IMG/VR virus record: IMGVR_UViG_2698536372_000007
Location: 1 to 7,585 of that record
Length of the DNA: 7,585 bases
DNA from: a virus
Taxonomy: Duplodnaviria; Heunggongvirae; Uroviricota; Caudoviricetes
Strand: one strand, 5' to 3'
A program made the position numbers and the translations under genes. The notes beneath the pieces were generated by a model. That model ran no database searches. It worked only from the letters and a program-made list of their open reading frames with translations, and was not told where the DNA came from. How positions within the stretch are numbered: the stretch's first letter is position 1; each line of letters starts with the position of its first letter. Positions 2,548 to 3,000 of the stretch are shown here, in pieces.

Positions 2548-2717
2548 AGCACTAATTATCTATTTCTGTTGCCTTCTTCAGTAGATCTGGAGATCGCAAC
2601 GGAGGAAGAAAACTCGTTGCTGGAAGCCTGGAAGAAGTATCGGGTGTTGCTGAACCGTGTTGATACATCAACTGCACCTGATATTGAGTGGCCGGAAGAA
2701 CCAAGATCATCCGAATA
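2548..2717 (+). pseudogene. Orphan 3' fragment of a tail fibre assembly (tfa) gene; no start codon, about 45-55 C-terminal codons only
   Basis: Open frame from the stop at 2545-2547 to TAA at 2716-2718 encodes ...[45 protein letters not shown]. There is no ATG in frame. The [26 protein letters not shown] string matches my recollection of the conserved C-terminus of lambda-type Tfa proteins. Enterobacterial codon usage contrasts with the AT-rich DNA to its left. Confidence 0.6.
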
Positions 2718-2721
2718 AAAA

Positions 2722-2753
2722 TATACCAATTGGTATACCAAGTTTATACCAAG
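2722..2753. repeat. Three direct TATACCAA(G) copies (2722-2729, 2734-2742, 2745-2753), the first two inside a 16-bp perfect palindrome TATACCAATTGGTATA (2722-2737); candidate integrase arm-type sites
   Basis: Repeats read directly, 47-78 bp from the tRNA-derived core. The arrangement resembles the three tandem arm sites of one arm of lambda attP; which arm it corresponds to cannot be decided from sequence. Confidence 0.4.
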
Positions 2754-2756
2754 AGC

Positions 2757-2790
2757 CAGAAAAGCAAAGGGGCTACCATTTGGTAACCCC
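2757..2790 (-). terminator. Rho-independent terminator immediately downstream of the tRNA-Ser 3' end
   Basis: On the minus strand, 9 nt after the CCA end: GGGGUUACC-AAAU-GGUAGCCCC followed by UUUGCUUUUCU. The stem is fully paired on the minus-strand transcript (one G-U wobble) but has a C-A mismatch on the plus strand, so it is strand-specific. Confidence 0.6.
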
Positions 2791-2799
2791 TTGATTATT

Positions 2800-2859
2800 T
2801 GGCGGAAGCGCAGAGATTCGAACTCTGGAACCCTTTCGGGTCGCCGGTTTTCAAGACCG
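2800..2859 (-). other. att core: 3'-terminal 60 nt of a tRNA-Ser(UGA) gene (anticodon stem-loop, variable arm, T-arm, acceptor 3' strand, CCA); not an intact tRNA
   Basis: Minus strand reads CGGTCTTGAAAACCGGCGACCCGAAAGGGTTCCAGAGTTCGAATCTCTGCGCTTCCGCCA, which matches my recollection of the 3' part of E. coli serT-type tRNA-Ser (anticodon UGA). The 5' side (2860 onward) is AT-rich unrelated sequence, so the acceptor 5' strand and D-arm are absent. Confidence 0.85.
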
Positions 2860-2919
2860 AAGAAAAACAAATAAAAATCAGTGCAATACGTGAAATTGCT
2901 GAAAAGTTAATCAAATTTA

Positions 2920-2971
2920 ACACCAAGAAAAATCAAGGTATTAGGAAGTTGCTCATAGCTAGTATACCAAG
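2920..2971. repeat. Candidate arm-type sites on the int side of the core: TATACCAAG (2963-2971) and a degenerate ACACCAAG (2920-2927)
   Basis: Same motif as the triple repeat at 2722-2753, in the same orientation, 30-40 bp beyond the int stop codon. The short palindrome CCAGAAA-tt-TTTCTGG (2980-2995) lies between it and int. Confidence 0.35.
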
Positions 2972-3000
2972 TCTTTTTGCCAGAAATTTTTCTGGATTGT

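Follow-up and report, generated by a model that had tools for sequence, protein, structure and literature searches.

Gene content of the locus

The DNA analysed here, a stretch of 7,585 nucleotides that we call the window, is bounded by insertion sequences at both ends, and the genes between them are assigned in what follows to two lambdoid prophages, A to the left and B to the right of a phage attachment site (Table 1). In the complete genome of E. coli EH2252 the coding sequence of an ISCro1-family transposase ends at window position 66, and in O121 genomes the match to the window starts at position 97 only. With an IS66-family element at its beginning and IS600 at its end, the window probably represents a complete draft (short-read) contig, and breakage at IS copies explains why its own assembly allows no extension. 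IS600 at position 7488 was found in no complete E. coli genome, and the flanks of the window are therefore taken from its 99.9% relative EH2252, the best match among the complete genomes (window positions 1-7487).

In the closest genomes, the IS66-family element splits the tail-fibre gene of prophage A into an N-terminal coding sequence and the C-terminal open reading frame seen in the window (104-373). On account of this split tail fibre, the espK-bearing prophage A is probably defective for producing infectious particles by itself. The tfa remnant next to the attachment site spans positions 89-131 of the 131 positions of the PF02413 profile (E=5e-21) and is labelled a partial pseudogene in RefSeq. 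An Rfam match to IS009 at 2501-2672 on the + strand (84 bits, gathering score 117) overlaps this remnant and the non-coding stretch upstream of it; it is therefore read as similarity to the tfa coding regions of prophages and was rejected as part of the attachment site, and a match to MicX (Rfam, E=0.91) was set aside as noise.

On the other side of the site lies the integrase gene of prophage B, the product of which can be aligned with residues 1 to about 320-340 of lambda Int, N-terminal arm-binding domain included (PDB 1z1b, E=5.6e-20). This domain was missed by Pfam and detected by comparison with PDB sequences only. Given the full-length alignment, and as far as sequence can tell, the protein is a heterobivalent tyrosine recombinase. 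The int stretch has zero differences from that of EH2252, where the protein is WP_001299351.1. A search for further loci by the Int protein gave two only, one in E. albertii, which resembles phage Evi (see below) and is cut by a contig end, and one in Kluyvera, which is not comparable, the tRNA being in the opposite orientation.

From the exonuclease gene onward the sequence of prophage B departs from the prophage A copy, and beyond that gene lie a DUF1482 gene, dicB and the DicF small RNA. DicF is present as a full-length antisense sRNA at 7405-7456 on the - strand, upstream of dicB (Rfam RF00039, 77 bits, gathering score 48), and a match to STnc100 at 7251-7391 is below threshold (37 bits vs 47).

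Table 1. Features of the window, with positions counted from its first letter
Feature	Position	Strand	Basis or remark
IS66-family (ISCro1-like) element end	1..96	+	interrupts the tail-fibre gene of prophage A; left contig limit
Tail-fibre C-terminal ORF, prophage A	104..373	+	Pfam PF06820 Phage_fiber_C, E=1.2e-34; RefSeq annotation
espK, type III secretion effector, cargo of prophage A	828..2189	-	annotated as EspK (WP_000938124.1) at the corresponding place in EH2252 and O103 12009
tfa (tail-fibre assembly) remnant, C-terminal part only	2578..2718	+	Pfam PF02413 Caudo_TAP
Cargo-side arm of attP	2707..2793		P arm by lambda convention; common to prophages with differing cargo
Three direct TATACCAA(G/T) copies at 2722, 2734 and 2745, inverted copy at 2729-2737	2722..2753	+	predicted arm-type Int sites
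Intrinsic terminator, phage-supplied, for serT rebuilt on integration	2767..2792	-	11-bp hairpin
Identity block common to attP and attB, 66 bp	2794..2859		four-way alignment
serT tRNA-Ser(UGA) 3' fragment, nt 29-88 of 88	2800..2859	-	identical to the 3' 60 nt of K-12 serT
Int-side arm of attP (P' by lambda convention)	2860..3000		identical to the EH2252 yccA-side junction
Integrase of prophage B, lambda-Int-type tyrosine recombinase, 339 aa	3001..4020	-	Pfam PF00589
Putative excisionase (DUF4224)	3998..4240	-	Pfam PF13986, E=9e-9; adjoins int
Exonuclease, RecE-like; first early gene of prophage B	4308..6758	-	RefSeq annotation
IS600 end (first 98 nt)	7488..7585	+	100% identical to pO157 and Shigella plasmid IS600 copies; right contig limit

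The core of the site

An earlier note on this DNA, made from the letters alone, had placed a 60-nt 3' fragment of tRNA-Ser(UGA) at the centre of the site, and the comparison with K-12 serT confirms it to the nucleotide. The fragment begins in the 5' strand of the anticodon stem, with nt 1-28 missing. ARAGORN calls no tRNA gene anywhere in the window, so that 2800-2859 holds a fragment of serT only; the complete cloverleaf with its 5' half, which a functional tRNA-Ser has, is absent, and the fragment at this inner junction is without function as a gene. The perfect match to the unoccupied K-12 site runs 6 nt beyond the end of the tRNA, which gives the block of 66 bp, and the point of strand exchange must fall within this block. 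A common class of tRNA-targeting integrases exchanges strands at the anticodon loop, and by analogy exchange may occur around that loop here as well.

The arms and the terminator

The arm on the side of the cargo is the P arm by the lambda convention because it is distal to int. Allowing at most one mismatch, TATACCAAG has four matches on the + strand (2722, 2734, 2745 and 2963) and one on the - strand (2729-2737). These five matches compare with an expectation of 1.38 over the whole 7585-nt window; 1 of 200 shuffles attained this count, and all five matches are confined to 250 nt. The direct copies in the cluster to the left of the core are spaced 12 and 11 bp, and 2722-2737 forms the perfect palindrome TATACCAATTGGTATA. 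The longest exact repeat common to both arms is GTATACCAAGT, at 2733-2743 and 2962-2972. The earlier claim that arm repeats flank the core on both sides is thus borne out by copies of the TATACCAAG type to its left and right, enriched in comparison with shuffled sequence and clustered. Of the two copies that had been proposed for the right flank, the one at 2963-2971 stands, as part of the GTATACCAAGT repeat, whereas the one at 2920-2927, ACACCAAG, is a weaker match only, with one mismatch to the 8-mer and two to the 9-mer. As a sequence pattern, then, repeated arm-type motifs are present on both arms and separate from the core, and by analogy with P1/P2 and P'1-P'3 of lambda we infer that the TATACCAAG copies would act as arm-type Int sites. 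The int-side arm also carries a 7-bp inverted repeat, CCAGAAA/TTTCTGG, at 2980-2995, a few bases from the stop codon of int; both of its halves are kept in phage Evi, and one loop base differs.

The site was also said to have a terminator of its own, and one is indeed found after the 3' end of the tRNA: on the - strand, in the sense of the tRNA, an 11-bp hairpin running from 2792 to 2767 is followed by the T-rich tail TGCTTTTCTG, and the hairpin also forms in the RNA fold. The phage terminator (2760-2793) is homeologous to the terminator of K-12 serT, with differences that preserve the hairpin, and on a Salmonella contig the arm repeats adjoin a K-12-like version of the terminator. The sequences suggest that this arm of attP may originally have been captured from the serT locus, or that it may be exchanging sequence with that locus.

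Two prophages in tandem in E. coli EH2252

In EH2252 the flanks of the junction were read for about 50 kb on each side. The left half of the array runs from yccA through int (WP_001299351.1), xis, exo, early genes and HK97-like late genes to the IS66-split tail fibre, espK and the tfa remnant; after the junction, the right half runs through int (again WP_001299351.1), xis, exo, early genes, lambda-like late genes and tail fibres to a TccP2-like gene, an EspV remnant, an intact tRNA-Ser (serT) and hyaA. Two full prophages in the same orientation and with the same Int protein therefore lie between yccA and intact serT, with the junction of the window between them. The corresponding K-12 region reads yccA-serT-hyaA with nothing inserted.

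The window, both outer junctions of the EH2252 array and the K-12 attB were then compared in a four-way alignment. The yccA-side junction consists of the K-12 left flank, the core and the right arm of the window, and the serT-side junction consists of the left arm of the window, the core and the 5' part of serT (the K-12 right flank), while the window itself has left arm, core and right arm. The three sites are accordingly of the attR type (yccA side), the attL type (serT side) and the attP type, and one att system supplies both the attL and the attR that enclose the array, as it should around a tandem junction. The same phage terminator adjoins intact serT at the outer end of the array. Identity with the serT-side junctions of O26 E2865, O103 and EH2252, and with phage Evi, starts at about 2707, whatever cargo lies to the left, and the same left arm follows wholly different cargo (EspV remnant, TccP2) in O26 E2865, at the end of the EH2252 array that adjoins serT and at a second junction in O103 12009.

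The earlier note had allowed for the left-hand repeats being host sequence, in which case the site would be a simple prophage-host junction with its left repeats and terminator formed by host DNA downstream of serT, and it had proposed a comparison with prophage-free serT loci. In that comparison a similar host hairpin does lie downstream of serT, and empty sites match 2760-2859 at 91.3%. Only this diverged terminator is alike, however: the empty sites of K-12 and O103 are without the TATACCAA repeats and differ throughout 2707-2793, the sequence farther to the left is a phage tfa remnant and a phage-borne effector, and the left arm is also present in Evi. As the left-hand repeats have no counterpart downstream of K-12 serT, they are phage and not host sequence; the four-way alignment refutes a simple host junction, and we give that reading practically no weight.

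The site in a free phage

Phage Evi (LR597642.1), a plaque isolate from infant faecal viromes (PMC6969025), is 93.4% identical to the window over window positions 2707-3009. Its 40-kb virion genome has J, lom, stf, EspV', left arm, core, right arm, int, xis and exo in one contiguous run, and its Int is a close homologue, of 339 aa, of that of the window. The left arm differs from that of the window at 1 position and the right arm at about 20, with both motif copies unchanged. Several features of a lambda-type attP are thus found here: a core identical to the bacterial attB over 66 bp, reciprocal attL and attR exchanged inside that core, a neighbouring gene for a tyrosine integrase whose N-terminal part is an arm-binding domain and, in Evi, one contiguous site in a free phage genome.

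Less similar relatives of the site were also seen. On a diverged Salmonella contig, at a junction of the attL type, three motif copies persist despite the differing flanks, and phages of the PPompW group have a decayed relic of the site with two motif copies. In PPompW_132418 (LC567822.1, about 37,966-38,102) the decayed attP lies between the tail genes and an espO/nleG/espM effector cluster. What survives there besides the two motif copies is the terminator, a serT fragment with mutations and the first part of the int-side arm; these phages integrate at ompW, and the relic resembles a fossil att site inside an effector locus. Phages Tritos, HannyBb and others were considered as carriers of a free attP and rejected; the integrase gene of Tritos is different (1281 nt), and Tritos matches the window only at the tfa remnant and exo.

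The gene order of Evi on a virion genome raises the possibility, which the earlier note had also listed, that the source of the window is a monomeric phage, free or episomal, for example a recombinant with the late genes of A and the early genes of B, and that 2707-3000 is its attP. Taken alone, the window is compatible with such a hybrid monomer. We nevertheless regard this origin as very unlikely, as IS66-family and IS600 ends delimit the window, its tail-fibre gene is split by the IS66-family element, cargo of A is joined to early genes of B, all matches of at least 95% that cover the window are chromosomal, and no phage record covers at least 80% of it.

It is highly probable, in our judgement, that 2707-3000 is an attP-equivalent site between two lambdoid prophages that lie head-to-tail in the E. 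coli chromosome. The proposal that the layout is that of an attP and not of a host-prophage junction is upheld by the presence of both phage arms in attP order, in the four-way alignment and in Evi, and among the options that had been offered, the one of two prophages in tandem is what EH2252 displays, with two same-orientation prophages and the junction between them. The further detail that both sit at the same tRNA site is right for this closest genome; it fails for O103:H2 12009 and O121 RM8352, in which the array is rearranged and not bounded by serT on both sides.

A model for the formation of the junction

Under the tandem arrangement, both phages would use one lambda-type integrase, and their attP would comprise the last 60 nt of serT and 6 nt more. 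One integration event would leave, on the yccA side, the host terminator, the core, the int-side arm and int, and, on the hyaA side, cargo and the cargo-side arm with the phage terminator, followed by the core joined to the 5' part of serT. The hyaA-side product would be an intact serT, composed of a host 5' part and a phage 3' part and terminating on the phage hairpin. On the arrival of another phage with this att type, the cargo-side arm of prophage A (IS-disrupted tail fibre, espK, tfa remnant) would meet the int-side arm of prophage B (int, xis, exo, dicB/DicF), and the product would have cargo arm, core and int arm in the order of the free phage. We infer that Int-mediated recombination at the already occupied site, and not homologous recombination, brought in the second phage.

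A route by homology would give the same anatomy: a circular phage, or an excised two-prophage circle, would have recombined with a resident prophage and brought an unrecombined attP with it. Homology for this is ample, with the att arm, int, xis and the start of exo of prophages A and B in EH2252 differing at only 3 positions over 2.7 kb. The product has the same sequence by either route, so that the window cannot discriminate between them; the ends of the EH2252 array, on the other hand, are exact serT-type attL and attR, as simple site-specific tandem integration predicts. We hold the homology route to be a reasonable, if somewhat less than even, possibility, to which the rearranged arrays also lend support.

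Frequency of the junction and rearranged arrays

Among 5426 complete E. coli genomes, the intact junction of left arm, core and right arm is present in 79. A phage-type left arm adjoining the core, that is, serT occupied by a phage of this type, is found in about 750 of these genomes, and about 4670 have the empty-site pattern only. Three arrays (EH2252, O103:H2 12009 and O121 RM8352) were read end to end, and all three have a complete prophage on each side of the junction, in the same orientation. The homologous junctions of O103:H2 12009 and O121 RM8352, at about 95% identity, lie in arrays other than simple serT tandems, neither of which is enclosed by an attL and attR of the serT system: the ends of the former are of the serU type, and the right end of the latter is at torT.

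In O103:H2 12009 (NC_013353.1, 2.283-2.436 Mb and 1.1177 Mb), three lambdoid prophages extend from yodB to serU. An intact serU lies beside a different integrase at one end of the array, and a 3' fragment of serU lies near yodB. Inside the array lie two attP-int modules of the serT type that encode the same Int protein, serT itself being empty, and the late regions of prophages 1 and 3 encode identical proteins. This arrangement is consistent with the entry of a serT-type unit, perhaps a two-prophage circle that had been excised, into a serU prophage through homologous recombination. In O121 RM8352 (NZ_CP028110.1, 1.071-1.168 Mb), the array with the junction spans yccA to torT, and the host segment of about 24 kb (serT-hya-app-etk-gfc-csp-yccM-torS) is absent from between the prophages; in EH2252 a host segment of about 24 kb separates the serT and torS/T prophages. 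Homologous recombination between prophages is required at some step for both the O103 and the O121 arrangement. These two arrays, one with attP-int modules inside a serU-type array in a genome with empty serT and the other with its junction between yccA and torT, speak for the homology route.

An internal attP together with 2.7-kb near-identical int modules might also constitute an active recombination hub and not a passive scar, an idea that we consider unlikely at present. Were it true, Int acting on attP x attP or on attP x attL/attR would excise otherwise defective effector-bearing units, prophage units would move as blocks between arrays at different loci, and the serU-bounded array of O103:H2 12009 and the yccA-torT array of O121 RM8352 could be footprints of such movement.

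Comparison with known systems

For annotation, wherever both phage arms flank a tRNA fragment, one prophage ends and the next begins, and the region of about 100 kb is therefore to be divided into two elements that carry separate effector cargo. Short-read assemblies and prophage finders misjudge loci of this kind for the same reason. The stacking of phages at one tRNA site is a known way in which STEC and EPEC accumulate type III effectors, and the O103 and O121 arrays are further examples of recombination between prophages that involve no new principle.

Tandem lambda lysogens regenerate attP between the copies, and the PCR test for multiple lambda lysogens that Powell et al. published in 1994 reportedly relies on this regenerated attP. 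The arrangement described here is like that of lambda polylysogens in having two same-orientation prophages of one att specificity, outer attL and attR sites, an inner P-core-P' and a homologue of lambda Int. It differs from lambda in its target, which is the 3' part of a tRNA gene, in the length of the identity block (66 bp compared with the 15-bp core of lambda) and in the triple repeat cluster, which is on the int-distal arm, a mirror image of P'1-P'3. Unlike in lambda polylysogens, moreover, that arm carries a replacement tRNA terminator, and the prophages stem from two distinct phages that differ in their effector cargo.

For integration into tRNA genes, the attP/attB identity is said, in the account of Williams from 2002, to extend from the anticodon stem to the 3' end of the tRNA. 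The present site resembles this class, with a shared block from the 5' strand of the anticodon stem (nt 29) to past the 3' end, so that integration rebuilds an intact tRNA. In departure from that class, the intact tRNA adjoins the cargo end of the prophage, and int adjoins the displaced 3' fragment.

The closest parallels are in pathogenic E. coli. Tandem prophages at serT (serT_1-3) have been reported in STEC CC119 (PMC10132054), and phages sharing an attB are reported to stack in tandem in STEC and EPEC in a study that sets tandem integration against prophage-in-prophage arrangements (PMC8112680). The present finding is thus real but ordinary, tandem prophages at serT having already been published. 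As in those tandems, effector-bearing lambdoid prophages are stacked via a shared att site, in the same host group and with the same type of cargo (espK, TccP2, EspV); the arm repeats and the terminator of the present attP are not described in the accessible portions of either report. The 'attB-in-prophage' sites of PMC8112680 are short stretches similar to attB within effector loci, and attL and attR result from them. A site of that type was rejected for the window, where both phage arms are present in attP order on either side of the core.
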